NCBI GenBank assembly: GCA_964367355.1
Contig: CAYIWY010000003.1
Span: 36,919-100,918, forward strand
Direction: 5' to 3'
Source: an uncultured Gammaproteobacteria bacterium
GTDB taxonomy: Bacteria; Patescibacteriota; Microgenomatia; Woykebacterales; RBG-16-39-9b
DNA length: 64,000 nt
In this document: positions 12,308 through 46,574 of the stretch, one piece after another
Position numbering within the stretch: the first letter of the stretch is position 1
Layout of the letters: every line of letters starts with the position of its first letter
The notes under the pieces: model-generated
Databases searched by the model: none
What the model was told of the DNA's origin: nothing
Seen by the model: the letters and a program-made list of their open reading frames with translations, nothing else
Made by a program: the position numbers and the translations under genes

Positions 12308-12326
12308 ATAAAAATCCCCTTTACAC

Positions 12327-20888: not shown

Positions 20889-21312
20889 GAAGTTAAAAAC
20901 TATCGTGGTAGATGCAGACGCGATCGTCGCCCAAGCACACCCAGACGATTCTAACCATAGAAAAGCTCTTTCCACCACGCAATATTTAAAAAGTATTAAC
21001 GCACGTGTAGTTTATCCGACCACAGCAGTGTGTGAAGCAGTGACAGTTTTACAACATAAATTGGAAAACTCCGCTACCGCATACGGTACAGCCGTGATAT
21101 TCACCGACCCGGCTCTTCAGGTAGTGGAGATTAATCAAGAAATTATGACGCAAGCAATTAACAATCATTTTAGGCCACACACAAGTAAGAAAAACACTTT
21201 ATTTGATTGTATTGTCCTGGAAATTGCAGAGCAATACAGCGCTGATGCTATCTTCTCATTCGATCACTTTTACAAAAGTAAGGGGTTTAAATTAGCCAGT
21301 GAACTAAAATAG
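20881..21312 (+). CDS. PIN-domain toxin (VapC-like)
   Basis: IVVDADAIVAQ... PIN N-terminal; paralog of 21716-22141. Confidence 0.7.
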   Translation: MYKKLKTIVVDADAIVAQAHPDDSNHRKALSTTQYLKSINARVVYPTTAVCEAVTVLQHKLENSATAYGTAVIFTDPALQVVEINQEIMTQAINNHFRPHTSKKNTLFDCIVLEIAEQYSADAIFSFDHFYKSKGFKLASELK

Positions 21313-21468
21313 TCAATTTTGATACCCTGCTCTTAGGTTTTCAATCCATATACCTTTACTTTTACTAGCAATAATACCTTGATGTATCGGTCTAATATCT
21401 CTGTTTGACTCATTATAGTACATGTACTATTGACATACATCACATATTTAGGGTAAAGTAAATCTACT

Positions 21469-21723
21469 ATGTTGAGAACAAATGTTTATTTAACAAAAGA
21501 ACAGGATCAGGAAATTAAAACTCGTGCTAATGCGACACAAAGAGCTAAAGCTGTAGTTCTGCGTGAGATTATTGAAACAGGAATAAAAGTTACCAATTTA
21601 CAAAAGTCTGCTTCTACCGAAGTCTATATGAAACTTGCCAACATAGCTGACCAGTTTAAGGGTAAAGGCACTGCTCCAAAAGACCTTTCTGCAAATTTAA
21701 ATAAGTATACTTGGGATGAATAA
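21469..21723 (+). CDS. Ribbon-helix-helix antitoxin (paralog)
   Basis: Shares ...KGKG.APKDLS.NL.KY.W. C-terminal pattern with 20613-20888. Confidence 0.5.
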   Translation: MLRTNVYLTKEQDQEIKTRANATQRAKAVVLREIIETGIKVTNLQKSASTEVYMKLANIADQFKGKGTAPKDLSANLNKYTWDE

Positions 21724-22141
21724 ACCGCTAATTGTTATCGCTGACGCTGACTCAATTGTTGCCCAGGCATACGCTGATGACTCTAACCACAAGCTAGTTT
21801 TAGGTTTAGCACAAAAACTTCATGATCAAAGAGCACATATTCTTTTTCCGGCAACAGCAATCGCCGAAGCAGTGACCACCCTGCAAAGAAAATTTTCAGA
21901 CCCACATTTAGCCGCTTCTACACTTGAAGTTTTTACTGAAATTGGTGTCTCAATTGAAAATATAGACGATGAAGTAATTCGTGAAGCGAGGAAGTTATTC
22001 GACCCAAACAAAAGTAAGCAGAACACTTTCTTCGATTGCATAGTCGCTACTGAAGCTAAAAAACACCATGCAGACGCTATTTTCTCTCTCGACACTTGGT
22101 ATACAAAACTAGGTTATAAATTAGTTTCCGATTTGTTTTAG
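21716..22141 (+). CDS. PIN-domain toxin (VapC-like, paralog)
   Basis: LIVIADADSIVAQAYADDSNH... collinear with 20881-21312. Confidence 0.7.
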   Translation: MNKPLIVIADADSIVAQAYADDSNHKLVLGLAQKLHDQRAHILFPATAIAEAVTTLQRKFSDPHLAASTLEVFTEIGVSIENIDDEVIREARKLFDPNKSKQNTFFDCIVATEAKKHHADAIFSLDTWYTKLGYKLVSDLF

Positions 22142-22158
22142 GTTTACTTCATTGTGGG

Positions 22159-22195
22159 TTGACGTTTGTACACATTTGTACTAATATGTACTTAT
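22159..22195 (+). promoter_or_regulatory. Putative promoter/operator with TGTACA/TGTACT repeats
   Basis: TTGACG then TTTGTACACATTTGTACTAATATGTACT; same TGTAC operator theme as at 10046-10080. Confidence 0.4.
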
Positions 22196-22210
22196 TAGAT
22201 TTAATTCAGT

Positions 22211-22531
22211 TTGAGAATTGAGGTGAATAAGATAACTATGATCGAAATAATGAAAGCATCAGAAGCAAGACAACAATGGAGTCAAGTTCTAAACAAAGTA
22301 TTCCGTAATCAAACTCGAGTAATTGTTGAAAAAAGTGGTATTCCAGTAGCCGCTGTCATTTCTACTGAAGATCTGCAACGATTAACTGCCCTAGAAGAAC
22401 AGCGTAAAGAACGCTTTAAAGCACTCGATAAAATGCGCGAAGCCTTCAAGGATGTTCCTACTGAAGTAGTCAAACAGGAGATTAATAAAGCAGTTACCCA
22501 AGTACGAGTAGAGAAACGGTCTAACGGTTAG
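22211..22531 (+). CDS. Phd/YefM-like antitoxin
   Basis: 106 aa; SEARQQWSQVLNKV ... RVIVEKSGIPVAAVISTEDLQRL. Confidence 0.6.
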   Translation: MRIEVNKITMIEIMKASEARQQWSQVLNKVFRNQTRVIVEKSGIPVAAVISTEDLQRLTALEEQRKERFKALDKMREAFKDVPTEVVKQEINKAVTQVRVEKRSNG

Positions 22532-22541
22532 TCGCTAATAT

Positions 22542-22964
22542 ATGATTTCAGCAGTTTTGGATACTAATGTCTTAGCATCAGGTACTTTGGTTGCCTTTAC
22601 TCCTCCTGGTCAAATACTCAATGCATGGCGAGCTAACGAATTTGAGTTAGTGCTATCAGAACATATTATTGGTGAGCTGACTCGAACACTTCAGAAGCCT
22701 TATTTTCAAAACCATGTTACTAGTCAGAAAATCGTTTCTTTTATCGACTTATTGCAAAACGAAGCAACTATTATTTCCATAACTGTGAATATTGAAGGAG
22801 TAGCCACTCATCCAGAAGACGATCTGGTACTTGCGACTGCTGTTAGCGCAAAGGTTGACTACTTAGTAACTGGAGACAAACCCCTTATTGAAAAAATTGG
22901 TGATTCTTATCACAAAATTAACCTTGTTACCCCAGCCAATTTTCTACAAATACTTAAACGATAG
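22542..22964 (+). CDS. PIN-domain toxin
   Basis: MISAVLDTNVLASG... PIN N-terminus; conserved D/T. Confidence 0.7.
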   Translation: MISAVLDTNVLASGTLVAFTPPGQILNAWRANEFELVLSEHIIGELTRTLQKPYFQNHVTSQKIVSFIDLLQNEATIISITVNIEGVATHPEDDLVLATAVSAKVDYLVTGDKPLIEKIGDSYHKINLVTPANFLQILKR

Positions 22965-23040
22965 AATTAACAATACGCATACAATTGTATATAATCGCAT
23001 ATAGATAGTCTGCACAAACCATGTTAAAAAAAATAGAAAG

Positions 23041-23179
23041 ATACCAAGTTATTCGCGAAGATTTGTTAGCTGCTGAACCAATTGAAAGAAAAGCTGGGGA
23101 TGTGTTGCAAAGAAGCCTGATTCGGCATGATAGTGAAAAGTTAGCTAAAGTAATATCTAGATTCCCTTTAGTTGTTTGA
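23041..23179 (+). pseudogene. Diverged duplicate of the yvcK 3' end (fragment 1)
   Basis: Translates YQVIREDLLAAEPIERKAGDVLQRSLIRHDSEKLAKVI..., ~85% nt identity to 20455-20583 (VIREDLLATEPIERKAGDVLQRSLIRHDSDKLSQILTTLV*). Confidence 0.75.
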
Positions 23180-23292
23180 CAAACCGTCTCAATATGATAC
23201 GATATAGTCCATGAGTGAGACGATTCTAACTCTTCGACAGCTGACTTAAACCCTTCTGTTAAAAAGTCAACACAATTTCTAGTATTCCTAAG

Positions 23293-23916
23293 TTACAGAT
23301 TACTAAGTTTCTTAACTTCACTCCTCAATCTTTTTTTTACCTCTTCGAAAGCAATACCATTATTATTTTTAAATATTATTTTCTCCTGCATAACATCTTC
23401 AAAATAAACCAGGCTTTTCAAGATCAAGTTCCTGTCTAATTGGGGGTATTTCCTACGAGCCTTATCTAAGAGATCAGATAGTGAAAAAATCTTTAAAATA
23501 AAATACAGGTCAATGTAATCCTTGTTACTTGCTCTTGTGGTGATGGCCGATAACTTCATGCAACCGATATCTGCTATTCCAGCATAAGTTATATTTTCAT
23601 CACTAATGGTTTCATCGATTAATTTATATTTATAAGTAAAAAAGCTTATCTTTACTGAGTCATCAATTAGCACTGTTAGCGTATTGTTTTCTTCTTGTAT
23701 TTTTAATAATTTATACCCTTCAAAAAATTTTCTTAATCGTTCAAATAATCTTGCAGTATGTATGTCTCCATCGCTAAAAAAATCAAAGTCTAGACTGTCT
23801 CGATGCCCTATTTGTAAAGCTAGGGATGTCCCGCCAGCAAGGTAGAAATCATTCTTAAAATTTTTAAAAAGAGGTAGGAGGTCGAGTCTTTTTTTATCTA
23901 AAATAGTGTAAAACAT
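23293..23916 (-). CDS. AbiEii/AbiGii-like nucleotidyltransferase (putative toxin)
   Basis: LAGGTSLALQIGHRDSLDFDFF matches the GGTAL...R.S.DiDf N-terminal signature of DUF1814/AbiEii; paralog of 41422-42084. Confidence 0.5.
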   Translation of the reverse strand: MFYTILDKKRLDLLPLFKNFKNDFYLAGGTSLALQIGHRDSLDFDFFSDGDIHTARLFERLRKFFEGYKLLKIQEENNTLTVLIDDSVKISFFTYKYKLIDETISDENITYAGIADIGCMKLSAITTRASNKDYIDLYFILKIFSLSDLLDKARRKYPQLDRNLILKSLVYFEDVMQEKIIFKNNNGIAFEEVKKRLRSEVKKLSNL

Positions 23917-23918
23917 AA

Positions 23919-24188
23919 CTATCTCAAAATTCTTATATTAGCCTGTCCGGGCTCAACATCCAGCAGAAGAGACCAAAAAACTATCGATTTATTATTCCAT
24001 TCTCCGGGCAAGGGATGAATCAGACAAGCTTTGATATCTGCCTTTGAGTACACCTTAAAAAGCCAATCAGTTGCCTCTTTTGTACCAAGATTCAGCACAT
24101 TGGTGATAATCCGCTTTTTATCAGCTGCTAGGTCTAATTCTTTAATATCATACGACCATAAAAAAGGCTGAACAAATTTAGGTATCAT
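23919..24188 (-). CDS. Small partner protein of the AbiEii-like NTase (putative antitoxin)
   Basis: Directly upstream; weakly similar to 41225-41425 (LINLGLNG vs VLNLGTKE). Confidence 0.4.
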   Translation of the reverse strand: MIPKFVQPFLWSYDIKELDLAADKKRIITNVLNLGTKEATDWLFKVYSKADIKACLIHPLPGEWNNKSIVFWSLLLDVEPGQANIRILR

Positions 24189-24349
24189 AACTATATTTTA
24201 ACACAGCTCGCCCGTTTTATCAGTGGCCTGAAGTTCGTGATATTGGAGCTGGATCGTTGATAACAAGTTCAGTACCAAGCACAAAGATTTGCAAACGAGA
24301 CTTATTTTAGATAACTAATTTTCGGATATAAAATGGGCTGGGGGACACA

Positions 24350-24415
24350 CAGGCAAGAAGCCTAATTCGGTATGATAGCGGTAAACTTTCTGGAATAATC
24401 ACAAATTTACTTTAA
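24350..24415 (+). pseudogene. Diverged duplicate of the yvcK 3' end (fragment 2)
   Basis: Translates QARSLIRYDSGKLSGIITNLL*, matching the last ~20 codons of yvcK. Confidence 0.65.
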
Positions 24416-24445
24416 CTTTAGTTTGTTTGTGGTAAAATAGCACGC

Positions 24446-37378: not shown

Positions 37379-37450
37379 ATGCGTGTTGGTATTGATGCTC
37401 GGTTTTTGGGTCCGGATGGAACTGGAATTGGACCACAGGAGCCAAATTAG
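37379..37450 (+). pseudogene. Remnant of a GT4 5' end (23 codons), diverged copy of the start of 38341-39474
   Basis: MRVGIDARFLGPDGTGIGPQEPN* vs MKIGIDARFLGPDGTGIGRYVEKL of the intact downstream GT. Confidence 0.65.
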
Positions 37451-37574: not shown

Positions 37575-37844
37575 ATGTCAAAAGTAAGTGCAAGAGTAAT
37601 CGGTGTTACTAAAATAACCTCCAAGGGTCAGGTGACTATACCGCAGTCTATTCGACGTAGCCTGTCTTTGAAGACGGGCGACAGTCTTGTAGTTGATCTG
37701 GAAAAAAATAAAGTTAATTTGACACCCCTACCAAGAAAATCACTTGAGGAAATTTACGGTAGTTTGCCGGTTCAGGAACCCATTAACTTCAAAAAAGTAA
37801 GAAAAGCATTTAAGGAAGAAGTAGCCAAAAGGCATTCTCGGTAG
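37575..37844 (+). CDS. AbrB/MazE/SpoVT-type antitoxin
   Basis: KITSKGQVTIPQSIRRSLSLKTGDSLVVDL: swapped-hairpin AbrB-type motif. Confidence 0.65.
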   Translation: MSKVSARVIGVTKITSKGQVTIPQSIRRSLSLKTGDSLVVDLEKNKVNLTPLPRKSLEEIYGSLPVQEPINFKKVRKAFKEEVAKRHSR

Positions 37845-37847
37845 GGT

Positions 37848-38261
37848 ATGAAGAAGTATTTATTGGATACTAATATTTTCTTAAGGTTTTTGACTAAAGA
37901 CGATCCAATAAAATCAGAAAAAATCTTAGCGTTTTTTCAAAAGGCGGAAAGAGGAGATATCAAACTTAGTACTTCAGATTTGATTGTAGCCGAAGTAGTT
38001 TGGGTACTTACTTCAAAAAAACTTTTCAATTTCTCGAGGAAACAAATTTACGACAGTTTTCTTCCACTTCTCCTAAAAGACTACTTAGAAATATCGTCTA
38101 AGGTAATGTTGCTGAAGATATTTGATTTGTTTATTGAAAAAAGTATTGATTTCATTGATTGTTATAATGCTGTTTTGGTTGGTGAATCAAACGAAAGGTT
38201 TATTTTGAGCTATGATGGGGATTTTGATAAAGTACCTTTCGTTGTGAGGGTTGAGCCTTGA
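37848..38261 (+). CDS. PIN-domain toxin (VapC-like)
   Basis: MKKYLLDTNIFLRFL... Confidence 0.7.
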   Translation: MKKYLLDTNIFLRFLTKDDPIKSEKILAFFQKAERGDIKLSTSDLIVAEVVWVLTSKKLFNFSRKQIYDSFLPLLLKDYLEISSKVMLLKIFDLFIEKSIDFIDCYNAVLVGESNERFILSYDGDFDKVPFVVRVEP

Positions 38262-38340: not shown

Positions 38341-39474
38341 GTGAAAATTGGAATCGACGCTCGATTTTTAGGACCAGACGGGACTGGAATTGGGCGCTAC
38401 GTTGAAAAATTGCTGGAAAATTTGGAAAAACTCGATACTCAAAACGAGTATTTTGTTTTCCTGCGAAAAAGTAACTTTCCGCTTTACAATCCAAAAAACA
38501 GAAACTTCACAAAAGTAACCGTTGACGCTCACTGGTACTCCTTAAAAGAGCAGGTGATAATGCCGGCTGTTTTGAATAAATTAAAACTTGATTTAGTCCA
38601 TTTTCCTCATTTCAATATCCCACTTCTTTACAGCGGCAAGTTTTTGGTCACTATCCACGATTTGACTAAGACAAAATTTGGTCGGGGAGCTGCCAGTTCT
38701 AAGAGCCTACCTGTTTATTGGACAAAAAATAATATTTATAAATTTACGATCAACCAAGCACTGAAGCGGGCAGAGAGAATCTTGGTTCCCAGTAATTTTG
38801 TTAAAAATGAAATTGCCAAGGAAAACAAAAATTTGGAAAGAAAGATTACAGTCACCTACGAAGCAGCTGATGATTTTGCCAATAATCATGTTGAGCCAAG
38901 CGAGGGTCGGGTTAAAGAAATTTACAATAAATTTGGGATAAGAGAGCCGTTTATTATTTATGTTGGTAATACCTATTCTTACAAAAATGTTCAGATTATT
39001 CTTGAAGCACTGCCAAAACTTGACCAAAATATAAAATTTGTTTGTGTTTCATCTAGGAATTCTCAATTGGAAGCGCTAATTCATAAAGCACAAAGTTTGG
39101 GGTTGAAAGATCGACTAATCACAACCGGATACCTTAGTGACCAGGATTTGGGAATACTTTTTTCTCAAGCAGTTTGTTTTGTGTTCCCATCCTTGTCCGA
39201 GGGTTTTGGCTTAACCGGGCTTGAAGCCATGGCTAGCGGTTGTCCGGTGATTGCTGCAAAAGTAAGTAGTTTACCGGAGGTTTACGGCGAAGCCGCCCTT
39301 TACTTTAATCCAAAATCTGACAAAGACTTAGCGGAAAACATAAACGAGCTTCTTAAGAATAAATTGTTAAGGTCTAAAATGGTCGAGAAAGGGCTAAAGA
39401 AGGTCAGAGAATATTACTGGCGAGATACTGCCAGGCAAACATTGTCTGTCTATAAAGAAATTTTAGGTCAGTAG
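38341..39474 (+). CDS. GT4 glycosyltransferase
   Basis: GTG start; FPSLSEGFGLTGLEAMASGCPVIAAKVSSLPEVYG. Confidence 0.85.
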   Translation: MKIGIDARFLGPDGTGIGRYVEKLLENLEKLDTQNEYFVFLRKSNFPLYNPKNRNFTKVTVDAHWYSLKEQVIMPAVLNKLKLDLVHFPHFNIPLLYSGKFLVTIHDLTKTKFGRGAASSKSLPVYWTKNNIYKFTINQALKRAERILVPSNFVKNEIAKENKNLERKITVTYEAADDFANNHVEPSEGRVKEIYNKFGIREPFIIYVGNTYSYKNVQIILEALPKLDQNIKFVCVSSRNSQLEALIHKAQSLGLKDRLITTGYLSDQDLGILFSQAVCFVFPSLSEGFGLTGLEAMASGCPVIAAKVSSLPEVYGEAALYFNPKSDKDLAENINELLKNKLLRSKMVEKGLKKVREYYWRDTARQTLSVYKEILGQ

Positions 39475-39484: not shown

Positions 39485-40390
39485 ATGAAGAAAAGTTCGA
39501 AAATAGGTTTCTTTATCAAAATACTTTTTGTTTTTCTGCTGGTAATTGCTGGTTTTTTAAGTCTGCTGAAAGAAACAGTTTTTGTAATCAGAAAAGCAGA
39601 AACTCCATCCGTTGAAAATGTTTTGGGTAAAAGTACACAGGTACAGCAACTTTATTCCGAGAGTTTAAAATCGGAAATTACTCCAGTGTCGATCCATTCG
39701 GCTACTGACTACGCGGCCCGTGTACCGGTTTTGATGTATCATTATATACGATCGGGAATTTCGGCTGCAGATACACTTGCCTATGGTTTATCAATCAGCC
39801 CCGAACAACTTGACCAACAGCTTTCTTTCATAGAGCAAAATGGGTATCAGACGATTAGTTTAAATGATTTATCAGATGCACTGGAGAACAAAACTCCTCT
39901 GCCGCCAAGATCAGTTATTTTGACCTTTGATGATGGGTACCGTGATTTTTATACAACAGCCTTCCCCTTGCTTAAAAAATACAATCTGCGCGCAGTGAGT
40001 TTTTATGTTGTCGGTTATTCCAATTATCCGGGGTATATGAACTGGGATATGGTCAGCGAGATTCACAAATCAGGATTAATCGATGTTGAAAGTCACACCT
40101 TGGGTCATTTGATGTTGACTCAGTTAACCCCAGAGCAAGCGAAAAATGAAATTTTTGAAAGCAAAAGAATTCTGGAGGAAAAATTAAACAAAAAAGTAAA
40201 TTTCTTTGCTTATCCTTACGGCGATTCAAATGAGGGGATTGTTAATCTAGTTGCACAAGCTGGCTATAAACTTGCTTTTGGCACCAGAGTTGGATCAGAT
40301 TTACACACGGGCGAAAAATTAACTTTAAAAAGAGTTCCGGTCAACGGCTTTGATAGTTTTGACGTTTTCAAAGCCAAACTGGATAATTGA
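39485..40390 (+). CDS. Polysaccharide deacetylase (NodB/CE4 family), membrane-anchored
   Basis: N-terminal TM helix; LTFDDGYRDFYTTAFPLLKKYNLRAVSFYVVG ... HTLGH. Confidence 0.8.
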   Translation: MKKSSKIGFFIKILFVFLLVIAGFLSLLKETVFVIRKAETPSVENVLGKSTQVQQLYSESLKSEITPVSIHSATDYAARVPVLMYHYIRSGISAADTLAYGLSISPEQLDQQLSFIEQNGYQTISLNDLSDALENKTPLPPRSVILTFDDGYRDFYTTAFPLLKKYNLRAVSFYVVGYSNYPGYMNWDMVSEIHKSGLIDVESHTLGHLMLTQLTPEQAKNEIFESKRILEEKLNKKVNFFAYPYGDSNEGIVNLVAQAGYKLAFGTRVGSDLHTGEKLTLKRVPVNGFDSFDVFKAKLDN

Positions 40391-40430
40391 CTCGGGTATC
40401 TAATAGATGATCCGACTATATTAGTAGACT

Positions 40431-40686
40431 TGGTTATGAGTGCCTATATCAAGCAGAATTATATAGTTTTCGGAAACTTTCAAATAAACAATACGAATAT
40501 CGCCAGCTATAGAAAAGGCTCTTAGATTGTTTTTAGTACCTTTTAATTGATGATTCTTAAGAATCGGGTCGTTTGAACTATCTTGAAAAAGTTGGATTCT
40601 TTGGGCTGTTTTTAGTACCAGTTTGGATTGTTTGAAATGCGCTTTTTGTAGGATTTATTGAAATCAGGGTGGAGTTCAATTTTCAT
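40431..40686 (-). pseudogene. Frameshifted YafQ/RelE-family toxin
   Basis: ATG overlaps the antitoxin stop (ATGA). Frame 1 gives MKIELHPDFNKSYKKRISNNPNWY*, then a shift gives ...QRIQLFQDSSNDPILKNHQLKGTKNNLRAFSIAGDIRIVYLKVSENYIILLDIGTHNQVY*, matching the YafQ C-terminus (KDHPLKG...RECHI.PDWLLIY...RTGTHSDLF). Confidence 0.6.
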
Positions 40687-40964
40687 TTTTCAAGATGCTT
40701 CATTAGTGAATTTACATCTGTAAAAGTTTTAGTCTTGACCTTACCTTTTTCGATATCATCAGTCATTTTATCGTAGCGCGTAATAGCCTGCGGCGAAAGT
40801 TGTACACTTTGCTCAAAAACGATCCCAATTCGTTTTTCAGCAAATCTGCTTAAAAAAACTCTTACGACTTCTTGTAGAGAAGAGAACCCCTGATCCTGAG
40901 CCTCTTGTTCTGCTTCATTCTTAAGTTCCAGATCTATTGGTACTTGTAATACAGTTCTTTGCAT
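40683..40964 (-). CDS. RelB/DinJ-family antitoxin
   Basis: RTVLQVPIDLELKNEAEQEAQDQGFSSLQEVVRVFLSRF: ribbon-helix-helix (RHH) RelB/DinJ pattern. Confidence 0.6.
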   Translation of the reverse strand: MQRTVLQVPIDLELKNEAEQEAQDQGFSSLQEVVRVFLSRFAEKRIGIVFEQSVQLSPQAITRYDKMTDDIEKGKVKTKTFTDVNSLMKHLEK

Positions 40965-41224
40965 TTGTGATAATTATAATATTTTGGTAAGGAGAATGCA
41001 AGTGTCAATTTAATAAAGTTAAAAGGTTAAAAAACTAGTCCGAACGTACTCTCACTTGGCCAGGGGTTTATTCAACCTTCCGATTGAGCGCGTTTGTATT
41101 TTAAGCCTCAGAGGCTGTCTGAAATTAGAAAACTACACGAATCTCAATCTTAAGTCTTAAACCTACCTTTGTTATCCACTGCGGCTGGTTTAGCTTCCAT
41201 TAGAACATAATTTTATGGTATAAT

Positions 41225-41425
41225 ATGAACATGTACAATTGGTCTACGGATACAAAAACTCTATCTAAATACCCCGATAAATATGCAGTCTGGAAACTAG
41301 AACAACTTATTAATTTGGGTCTTAATGGTCAGACACTAGATCCTAAAGAGCTTAAAAAATACTTTAATCAATTACAGATTGATCCGCAAAAAAAGAAATA
41401 TCTCATGTTTCTAATTTCTCAATGA
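41225..41425 (+). CDS. Small partner protein of AbiEii-like NTase (putative antitoxin)
   Basis: 66 aa, 4-nt overlap with downstream NTase; paralog of 23919-24188. Confidence 0.4.
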   Translation: MNMYNWSTDTKTLSKYPDKYAVWKLEQLINLGLNGQTLDPKELKKYFNQLQIDPQKKKYLMFLISQ

Positions 41426-42084
41426 AAAATGCAAGCATTCTAACAAAGACTCAAAAGCTTTTTTTAGAACTTTTTGGTAAACAACCTTTTTCCCAAAAAT
41501 TTTATCTTTCCGGAGGTACAGCTCTTACGACTTTTTATATCCCTTATAGATATTCTGAAGATCTAGATTTTTTTAGCGATCAAGAAATACAAATTGATGA
41601 AGTAATAGCATTTATTAGCTCCATAAAAAAGCCGCTTGGATTTACTGTCTTTGATTTTAATACTAGTTTTAATCGTAATCTCATTTTTTTACACCTCCCT
41701 AAGGATCAACTCAAGCTTGAGTTTACCTATTATCCTTTCACCCAGCTAAATACTCCGAAAGAAGAGTTTGGAATAAAAATAGATAGTATTGAAGATATAG
41801 CAATAAATAAACTTTTTACTATTTACCAAAATCCCAGAAGTAGAGATTTTACCGATTTATTTATGATTATTAAAAAGTACGGTTTTAGTATAGGAGATTT
41901 AGTTAAAAAAGCTAAGATTAAATTTGATTGGCATGTAGACCCTTTAAAACTTGGTTCTCAATTTATTTTAGTTGATGATTTAAAAGACTATCCAAGGATG
42001 ATTGAGCCGATAAAAGAAACAGATTGGCAAAATTTCTTTAAAGAAGAAGCAAAAAAACTCAAAAGAGATATTATGAAACCTTAA
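41422..42084 (+). CDS. AbiEii/AbiGii-like nucleotidyltransferase
   Basis: LSGGTALTTFYIPYRYSEDLDFF matches the DUF1814 signature. Confidence 0.5.
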   Translation: MKNASILTKTQKLFLELFGKQPFSQKFYLSGGTALTTFYIPYRYSEDLDFFSDQEIQIDEVIAFISSIKKPLGFTVFDFNTSFNRNLIFLHLPKDQLKLEFTYYPFTQLNTPKEEFGIKIDSIEDIAINKLFTIYQNPRSRDFTDLFMIIKKYGFSIGDLVKKAKIKFDWHVDPLKLGSQFILVDDLKDYPRMIEPIKETDWQNFFKEEAKKLKRDIMKP

Positions 42085-42086
42085 TT

Positions 42087-42857
42087 TTATCCCACTCTCC
42101 GCCAAATATCTAGTTTAATTCCCTGTTCTTCAATCTGATTGACAGTTGAAAGATAAAAAGCAAGATTTCTTGTTTCCGAGTCCCGTTGACTTTTAATAAA
42201 TTTTGCCAGAAATGTCCGAGTCAGATATGTTGGGCAAACCAATAGGATTGTAGGGAAGGGGTGTCTTGTAGACTGTTCCCATTTTCCTGAGGTGGCATAT
42301 TTGAATAAGTACTCGATGTGTTTTCTTAAGGCATAGCGCGGCACTTGTTCACTGATTATTTCGAGAAAATAGCGCTTTGTTACTTTTCCTTCAGTTAGTG
42401 CTATATACGCGTCTGGTAACGGCTTGTATAGGTATTTGTGAGGTTTCAAGTCAACTTTGGTGAAAAAGTGGAATTCGCTGCCCATCTCTTTGGTTTGAGA
42501 TCTCAGGTTTAGGTAAATATCGGCAATTAACATCGAATGGTCTCTAAAGAGCTGTGAGCGTCTTTTTTCCTCATAAATACGCTCAAGGAGAGAAGGGATT
42601 ACATTCTCATTTGCTTTTAAAATGTTTCTACTTTTTATATCAAGCCAATATACGGCTGGTTTGATATTTTCCCCAAACTTTCGGGAGTAGGTTCTGGCAA
42701 GTACTCTCTTTTTCGTCATATCAGCAAGCCACTTTTTAATTAGACCGGGATATTTATGATTTAACATTGTCTGAATTTGTTTTCGATCTAGGAAGCGGAA
42801 TCTGTAGAAGATATAGGGTATTTCGCTTTGTTTTGGTGTTAGAACTGGTTGTTCCAT
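42087..42857 (-). CDS. Replication-relaxation family protein (plasmid/mobile-element marker)
   Basis: N-terminal LTPKQSEIPYIFYRFRFLDRKQI (wHTH) and PDAYIAL...RYFLEI, resembling the Replic_Relax family core. Confidence 0.45.
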   Translation of the reverse strand: MEQPVLTPKQSEIPYIFYRFRFLDRKQIQTMLNHKYPGLIKKWLADMTKKRVLARTYSRKFGENIKPAVYWLDIKSRNILKANENVIPSLLERIYEEKRRSQLFRDHSMLIADIYLNLRSQTKEMGSEFHFFTKVDLKPHKYLYKPLPDAYIALTEGKVTKRYFLEIISEQVPRYALRKHIEYLFKYATSGKWEQSTRHPFPTILLVCPTYLTRTFLAKFIKSQRDSETRNLAFYLSTVNQIEEQGIKLDIWRRVG

Positions 42858-43108
42858 TTGTGATTTAAGAAGGTATGGGGCAAGAGGCAGAAGTAGTAAT
42901 TATTACCTTTAGTTTTGAGGATTATACCATTCCTCCCTTATGTATAAGGAAAAGAGACAGAGAAATACAAAATAATAGCTTCAAAATGGGCTAAAAACTA
43001 TGGCCGCGCGCGGCTATAAAATAAAGCAAAAAAACCTGCTAAACTAACAAGACTTTACGGATTTTAATATATTGACAGTATATACACCATAGATATAATG
43101 TATAAAAT

Positions 43109-43372
43109 ATGAAAAGATATCAGGTTTATCTTAACCCCAAAGCAGTGTCAGTACTTGATGAATTTGAGAAGCACGCTTCTGTTTCCAGATCAAAACTCAT
43201 CCGAGAGGCAATTGACAGATTAGCCTTGAATTTAGCTAAAACATTTACCGAAAAGGGAATTGCCCCTAAAGACAGGTTGATTTTAGATTCACTAATTGGG
43301 AAGATTAATACTGGTAGTCTAAAACAAACCAACTACGCCTTAAAAGATGACAGTTCGTACCTAAGAGATTGA
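43109..43372 (+). CDS. Ribbon-helix-helix antitoxin
   Basis: YQVYLNPKAVSVLDEFEKHASVSRSKLIREAIDRL. Confidence 0.6.
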   Translation: MKRYQVYLNPKAVSVLDEFEKHASVSRSKLIREAIDRLALNLAKTFTEKGIAPKDRLILDSLIGKINTGSLKQTNYALKDDSSYLRD

Positions 43373-43785
43373 TGAAAGTATTTTTTGACACTGGAGTTTT
43401 CATTGCCCTTTTTGTTTCCCAGGAGAAATATCACAAGCAAGTTGCTAAGGAGTATGACTATTATCGTCAGCAAAGAGCTCAATTTTACACCTCTTATTAC
43501 ATACTTGATGAACTATTTACCCGATTAGTATATGACTTCGGTTCTAAAGAAACCGAAAAAGTTATCAATCTGTTTGTAAAATCCCTGGAAAAAGAAGAAA
43601 TAAAAGTGCTAGATATCGATGAAGAAACTTTTAAAAAATCATTAACTATTTTGTTAAAATTTTCCGAGCACAAAGTTTCCCTAACTGATGCAACCACATA
43701 CACTCTTTTTAAGGACTTAGAACTCGACGAAGTGTTCACGTTGAACAGCGACTTTAAGAAAATAGGATTAAAAACCTCGTTTTAG
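43369..43785 (+). CDS. PIN-domain toxin (VapC-like)
   Basis: MMKVFFDTGVFIALF ... LTDATTYTLF. Confidence 0.7.
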   Translation: MMKVFFDTGVFIALFVSQEKYHKQVAKEYDYYRQQRAQFYTSYYILDELFTRLVYDFGSKETEKVINLFVKSLEKEEIKVLDIDEETFKKSLTILLKFSEHKVSLTDATTYTLFKDLELDEVFTLNSDFKKIGLKTSF

Positions 43786-43825
43786 GATCAACATTTGTAT
43801 TTTCTTTACATTCAAAAGATTTATT

Positions 43826-43891
43826 CTAAAGAGAATTCCGGTTAATGGTTTTGATAGTTTCGATGTCTTCAAAGCTAAACTCAATAATTAA
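43826..43891 (+). pseudogene. Diverged duplicate of the polysaccharide deacetylase 3' end
   Basis: Translates ...LKRIPVNGFDSFDVFKAKLNN* vs deacetylase C-terminus LKRVPVNGFDSFDVFKAKLDN* (40328-40390); ~80% nt identity. Confidence 0.75.
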
Positions 43892-43948
43892 TTTTCCTTT
43901 TATTTGCGCTTTTGAGGTATACTGTTTGTACTCTAAAGGAGGAGATCA

Positions 43949-44056
43949 ATGCCTGATTGGTTAGTCCTGTCAATGCTTTTCGTAGCCGTAGTTGGAATTC
44001 CAGTTGCTATCGAATTAACTTTGTTCTGGGATAAAAGGGTTCACAAGGAAACGTAG
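43949..44056 (+). CDS. Small hydrophobic peptide (35 aa, single TM)
   Basis: Strong SD AAGGAGGAG 7 nt upstream; MPDWLVLSMLFVAVVGIPVAIELTLFWDKRVHKET. Below the ORF-track cutoff. Confidence 0.45.
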   Translation: MPDWLVLSMLFVAVVGIPVAIELTLFWDKRVHKET

Positions 44057-44082
44057 TTGGCGAAAGCCAAAGGAGGATCTTT

Positions 44083-44193
44083 ATGTTACTGCTCAGCTCT
44101 GGTGATTTAGGTTTCACCATAGTCGGTGTTGCCACATCAGCAGTGATACTGTTCGCTACCGTGGCTCTTGTTGTCTTGACCAAACGCGGATAA
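44083..44193 (+). CDS. Small hydrophobic peptide (36 aa, single TM)
   Basis: SD AAAGGAGGA; MLLLSSGDLGFTIVGVATSAVILFATVALVVLTKRG. Confidence 0.45.
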   Translation: MLLLSSGDLGFTIVGVATSAVILFATVALVVLTKRG

Positions 44194-44362
44194 ATTAAGT
44201 AAACCTCTACAAAGGGAAAGAATGCACTCTTTTCCTTCTTTTTTACCCCGAACTATATCGTTAAGAAACTCATAATTGCCTGATTATAAAATGGATAGAA
44301 GAACACAATTTCTAAGTTTGTAAGTCAAGTTAATGGGATTTATAGAGAAAGATTGAGATCTG

Positions 44363-44629
44363 CTAAATGGTGTGGGGAAGTACCTTTTCAAAGACCCATG
44401 GCTGTTCTAAGTCACTAGTCTGCTTTGCCTTATAAACTGTTTTACCTTGTTGGACTAAACTCTTAACAATTTTATCATTCAATTTGTTGAGTCTAGTGTT
44501 TTTTTCAGAAAATGTAACAAAAGCAGCGTTTTCAGGTAAGTTTTTTGATTCTTTAGGGGTTTTACCTAAATAATTAGCAAGTTTTTCGGAAAGAGCTGAG
44601 TTGTATTTAGCCTGTTCTTTAATGCTCAT
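44363..44629 (-). CDS. Hypothetical protein
   Basis: ORF only; second gene of a two-gene minus-strand unit. Confidence 0.3.
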   Translation of the reverse strand: MSIKEQAKYNSALSEKLANYLGKTPKESKNLPENAAFVTFSEKNTRLNKLNDKIVKSLVQQGKTVYKAKQTSDLEQPWVFEKVLPHTI

Positions 44630-44656
44630 GGTCTTGTATATATACTAATACATTAG

Positions 44657-45097
44657 TCACTTGTCAACAACCATGCTTCTTTTTTCGAAAGCACGTCTCA
44701 TATACCAAAACTTCTTAATGATATCTCTTCTAGCCCAATCAAGCCAAGTCCAGACATCTCCTCGTTGTTTAACACCTTCTGTATCTATGATAGGAATCGC
44801 ATTCTTTATTGAGGTTCTTGTATGCCTGTGCAGTATTTTTATGTTATGTGTATTATCGTACATTTTTATCATTAACCAGTCACCACTGATTTCGATTTCG
44901 TATAAAACAGTAATTCTAACAAGGGTATTAACATCAAATTCTTTAACGATTCTTAACCTATCTTCGACTGTAAAATACATTTCCTCAGACTCCCTCCTAA
45001 GAATTGGAAGGTTCTTCCCAGATATTTTTTTAATATCTTTTGCCAACCCGATTTCCTTTAACAAAAGTTTATGAAATTTTCTTTTGCGTTTTTTCAT
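44657..45097 (-). CDS. Hypothetical protein (basic N-terminus)
   Basis: ORF only. Confidence 0.3.
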   Translation of the reverse strand: MKKRKRKFHKLLLKEIGLAKDIKKISGKNLPILRRESEEMYFTVEDRLRIVKEFDVNTLVRITVLYEIEISGDWLMIKMYDNTHNIKILHRHTRTSIKNAIPIIDTEGVKQRGDVWTWLDWARRDIIKKFWYMRRAFEKRSMVVDK

Positions 45098-45343
45098 AAA
45101 TAAAACCCAATAAGTACTGAGCAGTAAATTGATTATACATTAGATAAAAATTGTCAGAGATATATAATGTCGTACAATATTTGATAACAAAATGTTTTCG
45201 CTCAGCTCTTTTTAAGTCCTTTTACTCCTCTCATTTGGCTGTTAAGTGACTTTAGGCTATAATCTCGCCAGAGATTACATCAGGCGAGTTTGTATCAGCA
45301 AAGCCTGATATAATAACGCCTATGTCTAATTCAAGAGAACTGA

Positions 45344-45422
45344 AAATAAGAACTTTTTCGTCCGAACTCAAAAAACCTTGCATTCATAAATTAGAATTTA
45401 CTGATAGAAATGGATGTAATTT
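45344..45422 (+). promoter_or_regulatory. Conserved ~80-nt upstream element, copy B
   Basis: ATAAGAAC...AAAAACCTTGCATTC...50 nt...ATG; collinear with copies A and C. Confidence 0.5.
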
Positions 45423-46574
45423 ATGAAAGTGGCGCTCGTCCATGATTTCTTAAATCAATACGGAGGTGGAGAGCGAGTGATTGAACAATTGGCTGAGATC
45501 TGGCCGGAAGCAAATATTTACACCAGTTTGTATGATCGAGACTTGATGAAGAACTGGTTAAAAATTGATCCAAGTCGAATTAAGACCAACTTTATCAGCA
45601 AGCTTCCTTTTGCAAATTATCTTTCCAAACATTATTTTTTTCTTTATCCTCTAGCATTCCGAATGCAAAATCTAGGGGACGCGGACATAATTTTCAGTAC
45701 TTCTTCTTACGCGGCAAAATTTGCGCGTGGAAAAAAAGGCTCGATTCACATTTGTTATCTCCATACGGTTCCGAGGTTTCTTTGGGGTTACGATACCGAG
45801 CTCTCCGGATATTACCGCCGATCCTTTGATCGAGTTCTTGCGCCAATATATAAACTAGTCGTTCCGATAGCGAAATTCTTTTTGAAAAAAGCTGATTTTG
45901 CGGCTGCCCAAAAAATTGATTATTTTATTGTCAATTCGAACGAAGTTAAAAAGCGCTTAGTTAAACATTACAAACGGGACGGAATTGTAATCTATCCCCC
46001 GGTCGATACCAAAAGATTTACAGAAGAGTTAAGAGTTAAGAGTGTAGAGTTAGGAGTTAAAAAAGAGGACTATTATTTAATTGTTTCACGTCTAAGTGGT
46101 TATAAAAAAATTGATATTGCTGTTCACGCTTTTAACAAACTCGGAAAAAGATTAAAAATTGTTGGCGATGGTCCGCAGATGGCCTATTTAAAATCAATTG
46201 CGGCACCAAACGTAGAAATTTTGGGAAGAGTTGCTGACGAAAAGGTTACACAACTAGTAAAAAATTGCAAAGCATTTGTTTTCCCCGCACTTGAAGATTT
46301 TGGGATCGTAGTTGTCGAGGCCGAAGCAGCCGGAAAGAGCGTTATTGCTTATGGGCAAGGTGGGGCAACCGAGACCGTAGTCGAAGGAAAAACAGGTTTG
46401 TTCTTTCAAGAACAGACGCCAAAGTCTATAATAGAAGCAGTCAAAAAATTTGAGACCATGAAATTTGATCCGGAAGACTGTCGCAAGCAAGCGGAGAAAT
46501 TTTCAGAAAGTGTGTTTAAGAAAAATATGATTGAATTTGTAAATAAAGTTGTTAAAGAAAGGAAACTACAATGA
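45423..46574 (+). CDS. GT4 glycosyltransferase
   Basis: FPALEDFGIVVVEAEAAGKSVIAYGQGGATETV. Confidence 0.8.
   Translation: MKVALVHDFLNQYGGGERVIEQLAEIWPEANIYTSLYDRDLMKNWLKIDPSRIKTNFISKLPFANYLSKHYFFLYPLAFRMQNLGDADIIFSTSSYAAKFARGKKGSIHICYLHTVPRFLWGYDTELSGYYRRSFDRVLAPIYKLVVPIAKFFLKKADFAAAQKIDYFIVNSNEVKKRLVKHYKRDGIVIYPPVDTKRFTEELRVKSVELGVKKEDYYLIVSRLSGYKKIDIAVHAFNKLGKRLKIVGDGPQMAYLKSIAAPNVEILGRVADEKVTQLVKNCKAFVFPALEDFGIVVVEAEAAGKSVIAYGQGGATETVVEGKTGLFFQEQTPKSIIEAVKKFETMKFDPEDCRKQAEKFSESVFKKNMIEFVNKVVKERKLQ

Follow-up and report, generated by a model that had tools for sequence, protein, structure and literature searches.

The window analysed here, a 64,000-nt (64-kb) stretch of DNA, belongs to a Woykebacteria-like patescibacterium, and the junction of interest lies inside a chromosomal glycan-synthesis cluster. 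The host is an ultrasmall groundwater bacterium, and the deacetylase is a cell-wall sugar gene. From the deacetylase to the next glycosyltransferase, the locus reads as follows.

39485-40390, plus strand: polysaccharide deacetylase gene, the target gene (Pfam Polysacc_deac_1, E 3e-30)
40314-40390, plus strand: repeat copy 1, the deacetylase's present 3' end, its last 25 codons and stop (EKLTLKRVPVNGFDSFDVFKAKLDN, then stop)
40421-40686, minus strand: YafQ/RelE-type toxin pseudogene, frameshifted near 40612-40626
40683-40964, minus strand: probable RelB/DinJ-type antitoxin, 93 aa (TIGR02384, E 0.0019, full-length but below cut-off)
41059-41165, plus strand: frameshifted DUF2958 gene fragment, the C-terminal ~30 codons (tblastn, tblastx)
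41225-41425, plus strand: 66-aa ORF overlapping the AbiEii start, a candidate partner or antitoxin
41422-42084, plus strand: AbiEii-family nucleotidyltransferase toxin (Pfam E 8e-22; PADLOC AbiEii E 3.5e-16)
42087-42857, minus strand: intact Replic_Relax protein of the MOBC relaxase superfamily (Pfam 26.2 bits, gathering cut-off 25.3, E 1e-5)
42858-43040, minus strand: conserved region upstream of the relaxase gene (six-locus alignment with many invariant columns; tblastx conservation)
43069-43785, plus strand: VapBC unit with its own promoter, RHH antitoxin (43109-43372) and PIN toxin (43369-43785)
43815-43891, plus strand: repeat copy 2, apparently a displaced non-coding piece of a diverged deacetylase allele (KRFILKRIPVNGFDSFDVFKAKLNN, then stop)
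43892-45422: second, repeat-less insertion, from the displaced gene end to the glycosyltransferase, absent from L090 and L092
43949-44056 and 44083-44193: two small membrane ORFs in the second insertion, both with AAGGAGG
44363-44629 and 44657-45097, minus strand: DUF5647/DUF7718 pair in the second insertion (weak Pfam matches below cut-offs)
45423-46574, plus strand: GT4 glycosyltransferase, directly 3' of the deacetylase in island-free relatives

The two repeat copies bracket ~3.5 kb of cargo. They match over 75 nt in direct orientation (40314-40388 against 43815-43889, spacing 3501 nt; blastn E 1.4e-11) at about 80% identity (78.7-80%), and the longest exact run common to both is 12 nt. The initial annotation had the deacetylase C-terminus re-encoded downstream, and copy 2 does stay in frame, with its stop at the position matching the deacetylase C-terminus, but the re-encoding is not exact (V->I and D->N in the stretch then quoted), and no in-frame start codon was found in copy 2. 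All 17 of the 17 residues conserved among deacetylase orthologues are intact in copy 2; the orthologues in L090, L092, L097, L099 and L093 share 67-81% amino acid identity with the deacetylase. Copy 2 is 84% identical to the L093 allele and 78.7% to copy 1, although 75 sites are too few to separate copy 1, copy 2 and L093 statistically by distance. It has RFI...KLNN in common with the L093 and P0130 alleles, KLD being common to copy 1 and the nearest relatives, and its 3' flank (TAATTTTCCTT) is similar to that in L092 and L099 and looks ancestral. DNA identity between the deacetylase and L097 drops from ~90% to ~75% over the last 50 codons, which weakly hints at a mosaic 3' end in a gene whose C-terminus is generally less conserved.

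Among the cargo, the frameshifted YafQ-like toxin that had been proposed is borne out: the reconstituted 89-aa frame scores 37.3 bits for YafQ_toxin (cut-off 30) and 34.6 bits for RelE_StbE, and its ATG overlaps the antitoxin stop (ATGA) at the 40683..40686 junction. The partner's RelB/DinJ identity stands in part, as the RelB_DinJ alignment is full-length but weak and under the cut-off; a Pfam search with the ORF gave no match, and the assignment, which is probable, leans mainly on operon position. Likewise, of the suggested AbiEi/AbiEii-like pair, AbiEii is clear but the upstream 66-aa ORF has no detectable AbiEi similarity, no match in Pfam, NCBIfam or PADLOC, and no similarity to the DUF6922 partner of the window's other AbiEii gene. 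The VapBC pair is upheld by its PIN domain (E 3e-11), the Pfam match of the RHH antitoxin being weak, and its promoter is a perfect TTGACA-16-TATAAT.

The gene predicted to be Replic_Relax-like does match that family in Pfam, just over the cut-off. Of 130 homologues found, 120 were listed, and most of these carry PF13814, which is equivalent to the MOBC superfamily (PMC5357655); several of those listed bear the NCBI name "replication-relaxation family protein", and the matches listed are mostly from Patescibacteria. The AlphaFold model (pLDDT 91.6), for which the top Foldseek matches were FokI (2.6e-5), BstEII, PaqCI and MarR-type winged helices, has a predicted fold of a winged helix and a restriction-endonuclease-like domain. 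The conserved region upstream holds an extended -10 promoter (TGGTATAAT in the window, TGATATAAT in most relatives), a small inverted repeat, and a GC-rich hairpin with a T-run that terminates the coupling-ATPase gene in relatives and whose arms, read by eye in the six-locus alignment, vary between loci yet remain complementary. The region is a possible oriT.

In relatives the module runs in the order T4CP-like ATPase, Replic_Relax, s53, DUF2958, and in L086 and L087/L088 it adjoins a large serine recombinase that itself abuts a tRNA gene; where a recombinase is present, the gene abutted is tRNA-Gln or tRNA-Leu and not a deacetylase. Only the relaxase gene, the conserved upstream region with the ATPase terminator, and the DUF2958 fragment are retained in the window. 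The fragment is convergent with the relaxase gene, as in the relatives, and matches the L088 DUF2958 in two frames at 72% and 91% identity (tblastn, E 1.5e-5) as well as L088 and L094 by tblastx. When compared with the relatives' module, the coupling ATPase is missing beside the island relaxase. By this comparison the relaxase is stranded and the window has a module remnant rather than an element, although the relaxase may work with a paralogous T4CP-like ATPase located elsewhere in the window (134-2779).

The island is not universally present. In the island-free relatives L090/L091 and L092, only 21-27 nt separate the deacetylase from the next glycosyltransferase, which is followed, as in the window, by genes for an NTP-transferase, Bac_transf, DUF4012 and RecO; in L097, L099 and L093 the same junction carries different, unrelated cargo. 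The window's GT4 shares 77% amino acid identity with L090 and L092; for L097 (92%) and L099 (88%) the comparison covers the portions that those contigs contain. Judged by these loci, the 3.5-kb segment is a genuine insertion. All same-strain contigs (100% or 99.9% identical) carry the island, and no recombination junction or intermediate was seen among them.

The initial annotation read this insertion as an integrated plasmid-derived or mobilizable element with the deacetylase 3' end as its att site. The first part survives insofar as there is a real insertion, a Replic_Relax gene and a mobilisation module in relatives, but the coupling ATPase is missing and no integrase or excisionase was found in the island; the sole recombination-type gene in the 64 kb is an IS200-like Y1 transposase (16212-16784), and there are no tRNA genes or Rfam families anywhere in the window. 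The island also varies internally in its affinities. The VapBC DNA is 87% identical to that of L096 from the -35 box to the stop codon, and 86-87% identical to the L101, L102 and L103 copies, with sharp ends, whereas the adjacent relaxase gene has only ~70% DNA identity to other genomes' copies, and its orientation relative to VapBC varies between genomes. On these identities VapBC appears to behave as a discrete, separately exchanged cassette, and the island is, in its composition, a mosaic. The att-site claim is not supported: with 80% identity, a 12-nt exact run and recurrence at integrase-less cassettes, the gene-end repeat is not evidence for an element-specific att site, and the recombinase-bearing relatives sit at tRNA genes.

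That recurrence is plain within the window. Copies of the SecA 3' end occur at 11511-11606, 10595-10690 and 9993-10033, separated by toxin-antitoxin cassettes, and copies of the CofD 3' end at 23042-23175 and 24355-24420; the GT2 3' end recurs behind a Fic gene, and the GT4 5' end ahead of a MazE-PIN pair. The cassettes flanked at SecA, CofD and the two glycosyltransferases are of the toxin-antitoxin, Fic and AbiE types. Counting the deacetylase repeat, the window has at least five similar gene-end duplications, and those at the other genes flank integrase-less cassettes. The repeats are about 40-180 nt long and 64-90% identical; in the SecA array they are nested, with the 3' end of a PIN gene recurring alongside a SecA remnant, and farther remnants are shorter and more diverged. 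By-eye comparison revealed no motif common to the repeats of different loci. A census of such repeat pairs, taken over loci that form a non-random genome sample, counted 6 in this 64 kb. Non-CPR loci totalling 942 kb had 5, and other CPR loci totalling 312 kb had 3, of which two are apparently template/variable repeats of diversity-generating retroelements (DGR). Outside the window, L086 has a Fic gene, and L096 a MazE-PemK pair, enclosed in the same manner.

The differences between copies fall mostly at synonymous sites: seven intact-versus-remnant comparisons, pooled, give a pN/pS of 0.21. A model of in-place duplication followed by neutral decay of the remnant predicts 45-52 nonsynonymous changes as against the 33 observed, a value reached in 0/1000 to 0/2000 simulations under realistic settings and in at most 36/1000 under the most lenient; for the deacetylase pair alone, the observed value was reached in 77/3000. 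Because they differ mainly at synonymous sites, the copies look like pieces of different functional alleles, and by this substitution pattern they do differ in the manner of alleles.

Our preferred reading, to which we assign a probability of about one half, is that the island is a non-autonomous accessory-gene mosaic left by gene-end displacement, not by site-specific integration at an att site. Its genes would have accumulated at the variable deacetylase-glycosyltransferase junction, around a core consisting of a stranded mobilisation piece (the relaxase with its promoter, the lost ATPase's terminator and the DUF2958 fragment), with three addiction or defence cassettes placed about that core, namely the dead YafQ/RelB pair, the AbiEii pair and VapBC. 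DNA of a related lineage, with its own deacetylase 3' end and cargo, would have recombined into the resident gene, guided by homology on one side and joined illegitimately or via very short homology on the other, such that the deacetylase would have kept a functional 3' end, with the final 25 codons of the other allele left 3.5 kb downstream. We infer the route, which would be either natural transformation in which only one side had homology or a circular intermediate entering by a Campbell-type single crossover, and likewise which repeat copy is resident. In a compact genome whose genes abut or overlap, an insertion survives only if both gene ends stay intact, and duplicates would therefore mark cassette borders. 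Sequential 3'-end displacement that leaves orphan ends has been proposed to proceed via homology-facilitated illegitimate recombination (PMC5361080), insertion of restriction-modification units with long target duplication is known in competent bacteria (PMC2853133), and natural competence has been demonstrated in Saccharibacteria (PMC10633639). Against displacement, 80% homology with a 12-nt maximum exact run is a poor RecA substrate.

The best placed of the alternatives, although unlikely, is a true integrative mobilizable element or a remnant mobilizable in cis, with the repeats as attL and attR, excision by a recombinase encoded elsewhere, and transfer by its own relaxase and upstream oriT with a coupling ATPase and secretion system acting in trans. 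The intact relaxase gene and strongly conserved upstream region, the paralogous T4CP-like ATPase, the restored reading frame of the target gene (as with phage 21 and e14 at icd), the linkage of module relatives to large serine recombinases and the existence of related genomes lacking the island all speak for it. However, neither island nor window has a recombinase, the repeats have no long exact core, the tRNA-gene location of the recombinase-bearing relatives points elsewhere, repeats just as good are found around single Fic or toxin-antitoxin cassettes devoid of any transfer genes, and the internal mosaic, the pseudogene and the gene fragment indicate decay.

Somewhat less probable is a Campbell-type single crossover in which the short gene-end copy on a circular cassette served as the targeting site and recombined with the chromosomal gene end, an event that, repeated, would build integron-like arrays without an integron integrase. 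Its exact product is direct repeats flanking an insert, and a crossover near the stop codon predicts a resident-like copy 1 and a foreign copy 2 with resident flank, which matches the data, as do the cassette/repeat/cassette arrays at SecA and CofD; yet VapBC occurs in L096 and L102 with no accompanying deacetylase-end copy, the repeats of different loci lack a shared motif, the homology is too short and diverged for an efficient RecA crossover, and no circles have been observed. We consider it a little less probable again that ~75 nt were duplicated in place upon insertion, leaving copies that were first identical and later drifted. Such long target duplications are documented in competent bacteria for restriction-modification units that lack mobility genes, with repeats of 46-423 bp that sometimes overlap gene 3' ends (PMC2853133), and they would account for the nested SecA repeats and for distal remnants being shorter and more diverged, but the published repeats are near-identical, the synonymous bias and the sparing of all conserved residues are unexpected for a copy that has been non-coding since the event, and copy 2 has residues typical of other lineages' alleles. 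Finally, although the source is a metagenome assembly, the chaining of two strain variants of the deacetylase end into one contig can be dismissed as very improbable, given that the same-strain sequence was assembled from five separate runs at 100% identity and from a sixth, spanning copy 2, at 99.86%, that an assembly graph could not join copies with no common exact word above 12 nt, and that analogous structures occur in the unrelated assemblies L086 and L096/L102.

The locus has features in common with several known systems. Phage 21 and e14 integrate into icd and supply a substitute 3' end; as at the deacetylase, a slightly different alternative 3' end completes the target, with the second copy beyond the inserted DNA, but the integrase that each of these elements encodes and the defined core at which they recombine are not seen in the window. 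Chromosomal integron cassette arrays, which are rich in toxin-antitoxin genes, are similar in having small promoter-to-stop cassettes, a recurring repeat between them and a fixed entry point; the window differs in having no IntI or attC-like structure, and its repeat is locus-specific, being no more than the end of the housekeeping gene next to it.

Further parallels come from the literature. MOBC (PF13814) relaxases are found in integrative mobilizable elements (PMC5357655), and MOBC-T4CP pairs in Patescibacteria (PMC12102498); the window resembles these in its Replic_Relax homologue with a predicted winged-helix and endonuclease-like fold, in relatives whose relaxase adjoins a coupling-protein-like ATPase and sometimes a serine recombinase, and in a chromosomal segment with toxin-antitoxin cargo that is absent from relatives, but it has no integrase or coupling protein, its oriT is only putative, and the module neighbour is fragmentary. 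Restriction-modification units with long target duplications (Nobusato 2000; Furuta 2010, PMC2853133), most of them in competent species, are likewise addiction-type modules lacking a mobility gene, flanked by direct repeats of >30 bp; the empty-site genome has a single copy of the repeat sequence, which in some cases overlaps a gene 3' end. Their repeats are, however, 94-100% identical, whereas those of the window are 64-90% identical and allele-like, and its cargo is toxin-antitoxin, Fic or AbiE instead of restriction-modification genes.

In the C-terminal displacement arrays of Rhs, CDI and T6SS effector-immunity loci (PMC5361080), incoming DNA replaces a 3' end, and the old end is shifted downstream in the same orientation together with its linked small genes; when this happens again and again, it builds arrays of orphan 3' fragments that separate protective modules, with no dedicated recombinase and in naturally transformable hosts. 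There, the displaced end is a polymorphic toxin's variable toxin domain, with immunity-gene cargo, while in the window it is short ends of housekeeping genes (deacetylase, SecA, CofD, glycosyltransferases) with cargo unrelated to the gene, including one 5'-end case, at GT4. By analogy, the best fit would be a "C-terminal displacement" of the Rhs/T6SS kind, in which a foreign gene end with its cargo pushed out the resident end, and the footprint would then mark a general way in which this genome takes up foreign cassettes, not the docking site of one plasmid.

Judged by gene order in related genomes, the 3.5-kb segment bounded by two copies of the deacetylase 3' end is an insertion. In the related loci L090/L091 and L092, whose deacetylases are 67% and 76% identical to that of the window, 21-27 nt separate the deacetylase stop from the glycosyltransferase gene GT4, which is followed by NTP-transferase, Bac_transf, DUF4012 and RecO genes, exactly the order found in the window from 45423 onwards; since the same series stands there without an insert, the window holds ~5.0 kb of extra DNA, made up of the repeat-bounded 3.5 kb and a second insertion of 1.5 kb without flanking repeats.

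Features at the deacetylase-GT4 junction (window positions)
39485-40390, plus strand, deacetylase gene (polysaccharide deacetylase match, Pfam E 3e-30)
40314-40390, copy 1, the present deacetylase 3' end
42087-42857, minus strand, relaxase gene (Replic_Relax protein)
42858-43040, non-coding region upstream of the relaxase gene
43069-43785, plus strand, VapBC unit
43815-43891, copy 2, the displaced, non-coding remnant
43892-45422, second insertion: two small hydrophobic/membrane ORFs with strong ribosome-binding sites and a DUF5647/DUF7718 pair
45423-46574, plus strand, GT4

The junction is a variable hotspot. It is empty in L090/L091 and L092 and holds other cargo in L097 (deacetylase 81%, glycosyltransferase 92% identical; a phosphoribosyltransferase gene and an 89-aa ORF), in L099 (three small secreted or membrane proteins) and in L093 (cargo different from both), and the relaxase, the toxin-antitoxin genes and a deacetylase-end remnant are absent from it in all of these last three; the variable presence among relatives that the initial annotation proposed to check for is thereby borne out. 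Among the species-representative genomes scanned with the deacetylase, the best relative was 50% identical and useless for synteny. The window itself is chromosomal, its gene content including SecA, CofD, an mraZ-mraW-PBP-Mur ligase cluster, an aminoacyl-tRNA synthetase, RecO and a long run of glycosyltransferases, and the segment within it is a real, strain-specific accessory island. Every contig of the island's strain is nearly identical, with no empty or excised form seen among them.

The re-encoding of the deacetylase C-terminus downstream of the island, noticed in the initial annotation, is genuine: 40314-40388 and 43815-43889 form a direct repeat of 75 nt, ~80% identical, at a spacing of 3501 nt (blastn E 1.4e-11), in which the longest exact run is 12 nt. 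Copy 2 keeps the frame and stop position of the deacetylase C-terminus with six codons altered (KRFILKRIPVNGFDSFDVFKAKLNN versus EKLTLKRVPVNGFDSFDVFKAKLDN, each read up to the stop), and the lack of an in-frame start codon marks it as a gene fragment. A repeat of more than 30 bp thus surrounds an insert without mobility genes and is single-copy in the empty-site genomes. It is one instance of a gene-end displacement footprint that recurs in this genome, as a window-wide search found diverged gene-end duplicates at four further places.

Further gene-end duplicates in the window
9384-13285, minus-strand array: the 3' end of SecA (13190-15898), 13190-13285 plus ~85 nt downstream, recurs at 11416-11606, 10595-10690 and 9993-10033; between the copies are an NYN-domain gene with an adjoining 235-aa gene, a PIN pair and two Phd/RelE pairs
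20455-24420: the 3' end of CofD (19606-20583) recurs at 23042-23175 (83%, within a 52-aa ATG-started ORF) and 24355-24420 (77%); between the copies are three VapBC-like pairs and an AbiEii/DUF6922 pair
17534-17572: the 3' end of GT2 recurs at 18648-18686 (39 nt, 90%); a Fic gene (17628-18614) is between
38348-38393: the 5' end of another GT4 gene, downstream of its duplicate, recurs at 37386-37431 (ATG plus 18 codons, 80%); a MazE-PIN pair (~37578-38261) is between

The remnants can be serial, with three at SecA and two at CofD, the more distal ones being shorter or more diverged. The three SecA remnants also have in common ~25 nt similar to the 3' end of the PIN gene itself, which suggests nested rounds of one process. 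In the GT4 5'-end copies every difference within the conserved IDARFLGPDGTGIG stretch is synonymous, and the GT2 remnant leads directly into the start codon (18690) of the gene that follows, which makes it probable that these genes overlapped in the ancestor. Comparable duplicates occur in related loci: in L086 the relaxase 3' end is duplicated around a Fic gene (79 nt, 71%), and in L096 a gene end is duplicated around a MazE-PemK pair (73 nt, 88%). No recombinase was found within the repeat-flanked inserts of the window, L086 or L096; an IS200-like Y1 transposase gene (16212-16784), just upstream of the Fic region, is the sole recombination-type gene found in the window. Repeats resembling that of the deacetylase flank cassettes that cannot be integrative mobilizable elements. 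Adjoining the SecA-linked toxin-antitoxin array, at 6835-9315, is the gene of an 826-aa protein without a family match, whose N-terminal half is long, low-complexity and rich in proline and glutamate.

As the raw count of all direct repeats is unspecific (~5 per 100 kb everywhere), a gene-end-specific census was used instead, counting pairs with one copy at the 3' terminus of an ORF of 150 aa or longer and a non-genic copy 300-8000 nt away. It gave 6 pairs in the 64 kb of the window, against 5 in 942 kb of non-CPR loci and 3 in 312 kb of other CPR loci (two of these three appear to be DGR template/variable repeats), the comparison loci having been gathered around deacetylase and relaxase genes and not being a random sample. 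A search of the literature on toxin-antitoxin cassettes flanked by gene-end repeats returned nothing that matches directly.

The way in which the copies differ bears on their origin. Within the deacetylase pair, C/T transitions at third codon positions predominate among the mismatches (third positions account for 10 of the 16-17 differences), pN/pS is 0.15, and the six amino-acid differences all fall at positions variable among orthologues, with none of 17 conserved residues touched. Pooled over seven intact-versus-remnant comparisons, pS is 0.48 and pN 0.10, a ratio of 0.21, and the stop codon is kept in place in four remnants. From the synonymous bias and the intact conserved residues we conclude, on sequence grounds, that the repeat copies are most probably pieces of different, once-functional alleles. 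Copy 2 has RFI...KLNN, as in the alleles of L093 and of the orthologous deacetylase P0130, and is 84% identical to L093 as against 78.7% to copy 1, a difference that, over 75 sites, lacks significance when taken alone. In the last 50 deacetylase codons, a region that is generally variable, DNA identity to L097, the closest relative, falls from 87-91% to 74-77%, and this drop is a weak hint that the deacetylase gene may be mosaic. Informative sites within the repeat, compared with L097, L099, L092 and L093 to place a crossover point, give a noisy, saturated pattern. As to which copy is the resident one, the signs point both ways: copy 1 shares KLD with the nearest relatives, and the flank after copy 2 (TAATTTTCCTT) resembles the post-stop flank in L092 and L099. 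Both features would be accounted for if the crossover took place close to the stop codon.

The overall pattern is that of an intact gene, its cargo and an orphan end of another allele, all in the same orientation and sometimes serially repeated. The favoured explanation, by analogy with the displacement seen in Rhs, CDI and T6SS loci, with target-duplication insertions and with competence in Saccharibacteria, is that a diverged gene end would have been imported together with its cargo from a related lineage, one join being made by homology and the other illegitimately or through short homology. As genes here abut or overlap, like GT2 and its neighbour, only insertions that leave both gene ends intact would survive, which amounts to selection for gene-end duplicates. 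Less probably, the same product could have come from a circular intermediate that entered by a Campbell-type crossover. Duplication of the target in place fares less well, as from that event on one copy would have had no coding role and changes would be expected at all codon positions, which is not what the copies show. In simulations of such a duplication (neutral remnant, omega of 0.1 on the gene, transition bias of 1-8), 45-52 nonsynonymous differences were expected and 33 were observed; between 0 of 1000 and 0 of 2000 runs reached the observed value with equal branch shares, and at most 36 of 1000 under the most lenient setting. It is accordingly rejected for the pooled data (pN/pS 0.21), with 77 of 3000 simulations reaching the observed value for the deacetylase pair alone.

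The initial annotation had read the island as an integrated plasmid or mobilizable element with its att site at the deacetylase 3' end. The gene calls behind that reading were largely correct. The frameshifted toxin is of the YafQ/RelE type, the reconstituted protein scoring 37.3 bits against YafQ_toxin, and the 93-aa protein upstream of it matches RelB/DinJ weakly (E 0.0019); the VapBC pair comprises RHH antitoxin and PIN toxin genes, so that each toxin domain has an adjoining small upstream partner gene. In the supposed AbiEi/AbiEii pair the AbiEii member stands (Pfam E 8e-22; PADLOC E 3.5e-16), and its 66-aa partner matched no family in profile searches. The Replic_Relax assignment of 42087-42857 also stands, at 26.2 bits against a cut-off of 25.3 (E 1e-5), a score that is marginal taken alone; the match spans positions 5-155 of the 191 in the profile, and PF13814 is carried by most of the listed homologues, at 34-74% identity. 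The closest named relatives among the matches listed come from Candidatus Woykebacteria and from further Patescibacteria; their contigs reach 586 kb.

PF13814 is equivalent to the MOBC relaxase superfamily (PMC5357655) and has been placed in the PD-(D/E)XK fold (PMC3424549), with an N-terminal winged helix and a restriction-endonuclease-like domain. An AlphaFold model built from 27 homologues (pLDDT 91.6, pTM 0.88) is consistent with this assignment: its Foldseek matches are FokI (2.6e-5), BstEII, PaqCI and XisH-like nucleases, with MarR-type winged helices for the N-terminus, at TM-scores that are low (0.3) because the domains match separately. A profile search of solved structures returned no relative of the family. 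As regards the superfamily's catalytic acidic/lysine motif, invariant columns of the family alignment include Q10, R21, E97, P148 and Y163, but D149 and E166 lie outside the columns conserved at 90% or more.

In relatives this gene is part of a larger module. It lies directly downstream of a gene for an ATPase of ~875 aa with DUF8128, DUF87 and TraG/TrwB signatures in L086, L087/L088, L094, L096 and L102; in L087/L088 and L094 the genes after it encode a 53-aa protein and DUF2958. A gene for a large serine recombinase adjoins the module in L086 and L087/L088, its 3' end overlapping a tRNA gene, which suggests that recombinase/ATPase/relaxase elements integrate at tRNA genes. In Patescibacteria, MOBC has been detected more often than any other relaxase class, and a t4cp gene is often found close to the relaxase genes there (PMC12102498).

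Module parts and VapBC units in related loci (positions of each locus)
L086 5167-6900, large serine recombinase gene overlapping the 3' part of tRNA-Gln(ttg)
L087 4876-6598, large serine recombinase gene overlapping the 3' part of tRNA-Leu(cag)
L086 9820-10000, L088 4910-5095 and L096 7813-8000, also L094 and L095, non-coding region upstream of the relaxase gene
L096 8870-9587, L101/L102 5697-6414 and L103 1261-2002, VapBC unit

The window relaxase gene has no coupling-protein gene next to it, only the ATPase terminator being left, and the gene in L095 is likewise an orphan without the coupling ATPase. What the window keeps of the module is the relaxase gene, ~180 nt of its upstream region and a frameshifted DUF2958 fragment of 30 codons in the convergent position expected; with the ATPase and recombinase lost, the plasmid-marker gene is a stranded piece of a mobilisation module and not a working element. 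The upstream region is conserved far above its protein-coding flanks, and has an extended -10 promoter of the TGATATAAT type, a CCTTAT/ATAAGG inverted repeat and a GC hairpin that, with its T-run, ends the ATPase gene in relatives; in an alignment read by eye, the hairpin arms vary between loci yet stay complementary. From these features it is a candidate oriT or operator. A T4CP-like ATPase of 881 aa (134-2779; TraG-D_C, TrwB, DUF87), 38 kb from the window relaxase, is 31-35% identical to the relaxase-linked ATPases of relatives; the gene downstream of it is unrelated to the relaxase, 311-aa and 450-aa proteins without a family match follow, and the region 134-5135 could be a second, divergent transfer or secretion module. 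In L094, a Woykebacteria contig, an apparent DGR (300-4700; bAvd, reverse transcriptase, two paralogous targets, 123-167-nt repeats) lies directly upstream of the T4CP-relaxase pair, and its layout differs from that of the window repeats.

The pieces of the island also have separate histories. The VapBC unit is 87% identical in DNA to that of L096 and 86-87% to those of L101, L102 and L103, with conservation bounded exactly by the -35 box and the stop codon, and the relaxase genes adjoining it are only ~65% identical in protein and ~70% in DNA. VapBC adjoins a relaxase gene in at least four genomes, on differing sides or in differing orientations. L096 and L102 have, in one direction, GT2, MazE-PemK, ATPase, relaxase, VapBC, AbiEi-AbiEii, an AAA ATPase and Fic, whereas the window has its relaxase segment inverted with respect to VapBC, and its AbiEii pair lies between the relaxase gene and the DUF2958 fragment. 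Given this jump in identity and the rearranged order, small transcription units have evidently been exchanged independently; no deacetylase-end copy travels with VapBC in L096 or L102.

The integrated-element reading is therefore only partly supported, with no integrase, the coupling ATPase and recombinase missing, and a repeat that is not unique. Neither an active mobilizable element nor an integrated plasmid can be identified in the island, which is a decayed piece of a relaxase module lying among toxin-antitoxin cassettes that have been exchanged separately. A DGR is rejected, there being no reverse transcriptase in the window and no adenine specificity in the repeat mismatches. A tRNA- or RNA-based att site, with no tRNA gene or Rfam match in the whole 64-kb window, and an assembly artefact as the source of the structure are also rejected.

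Of more interest than the island is the displacement footprint itself, found at housekeeping genes and with addiction modules as cargo in a Patescibacterium. Patescibacteria have very small, packed genomes, yet many toxin-antitoxin and defence genes, and the route by which these enter is poorly understood. It is a speculative possibility, to which we give roughly one chance in five, that some Patescibacteria load addiction and defence cassettes by an integrase-free, gene-end-guided process in which a short diverged end of a housekeeping gene is brought in or recombined through and the resident end displaced, building arrays that resemble those of integrons (gene, cassette, old end, cassette, older end) at SecA, CofD, glycosyltransferases and the deacetylase, with the relaxase island as one product. 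Such a route may run on natural transformation. If displaced ends are a regular footprint of cassette entry, they would offer a simple signature for recent gene gain in uncultured genomes, the relative order of arrival within an array could be read, and transformation-type recombination, not integrases, would be indicated as a main route by which genes are gained. Annotators should not take a lone Replic_Relax gene in such genomes as the mark of a plasmid or an active element.

Among known systems, an integrative mobilizable element has its own integrase/excisionase, and none was found among the island ORFs or the window ORFs scanned. Integrons need IntI, attI and attC, whereas the window has no tyrosine recombinase and its repeats are locus-specific gene ends in which no motif shared between loci was seen by eye. 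Closer are the restriction-modification units that insert with long target duplications in competent bacteria (PMC2853133), although their repeats are near-identical and those here are 80% identical; natural competence has been demonstrated in Saccharibacteria (PMC10633639). The closest likeness is to the C-terminal displacement known from effector-immunity loci of the Rhs, CDI and T6SS kinds, which has been proposed to come about through homology-facilitated illegitimate recombination once DNA is taken up (PMC5361080). There too an orphan 3' fragment lies in the same orientation downstream of an intact gene, with cargo between them and serial arrays, but here the displaced ends are those of housekeeping genes, the cargo is addiction modules and the host is a Patescibacterium.
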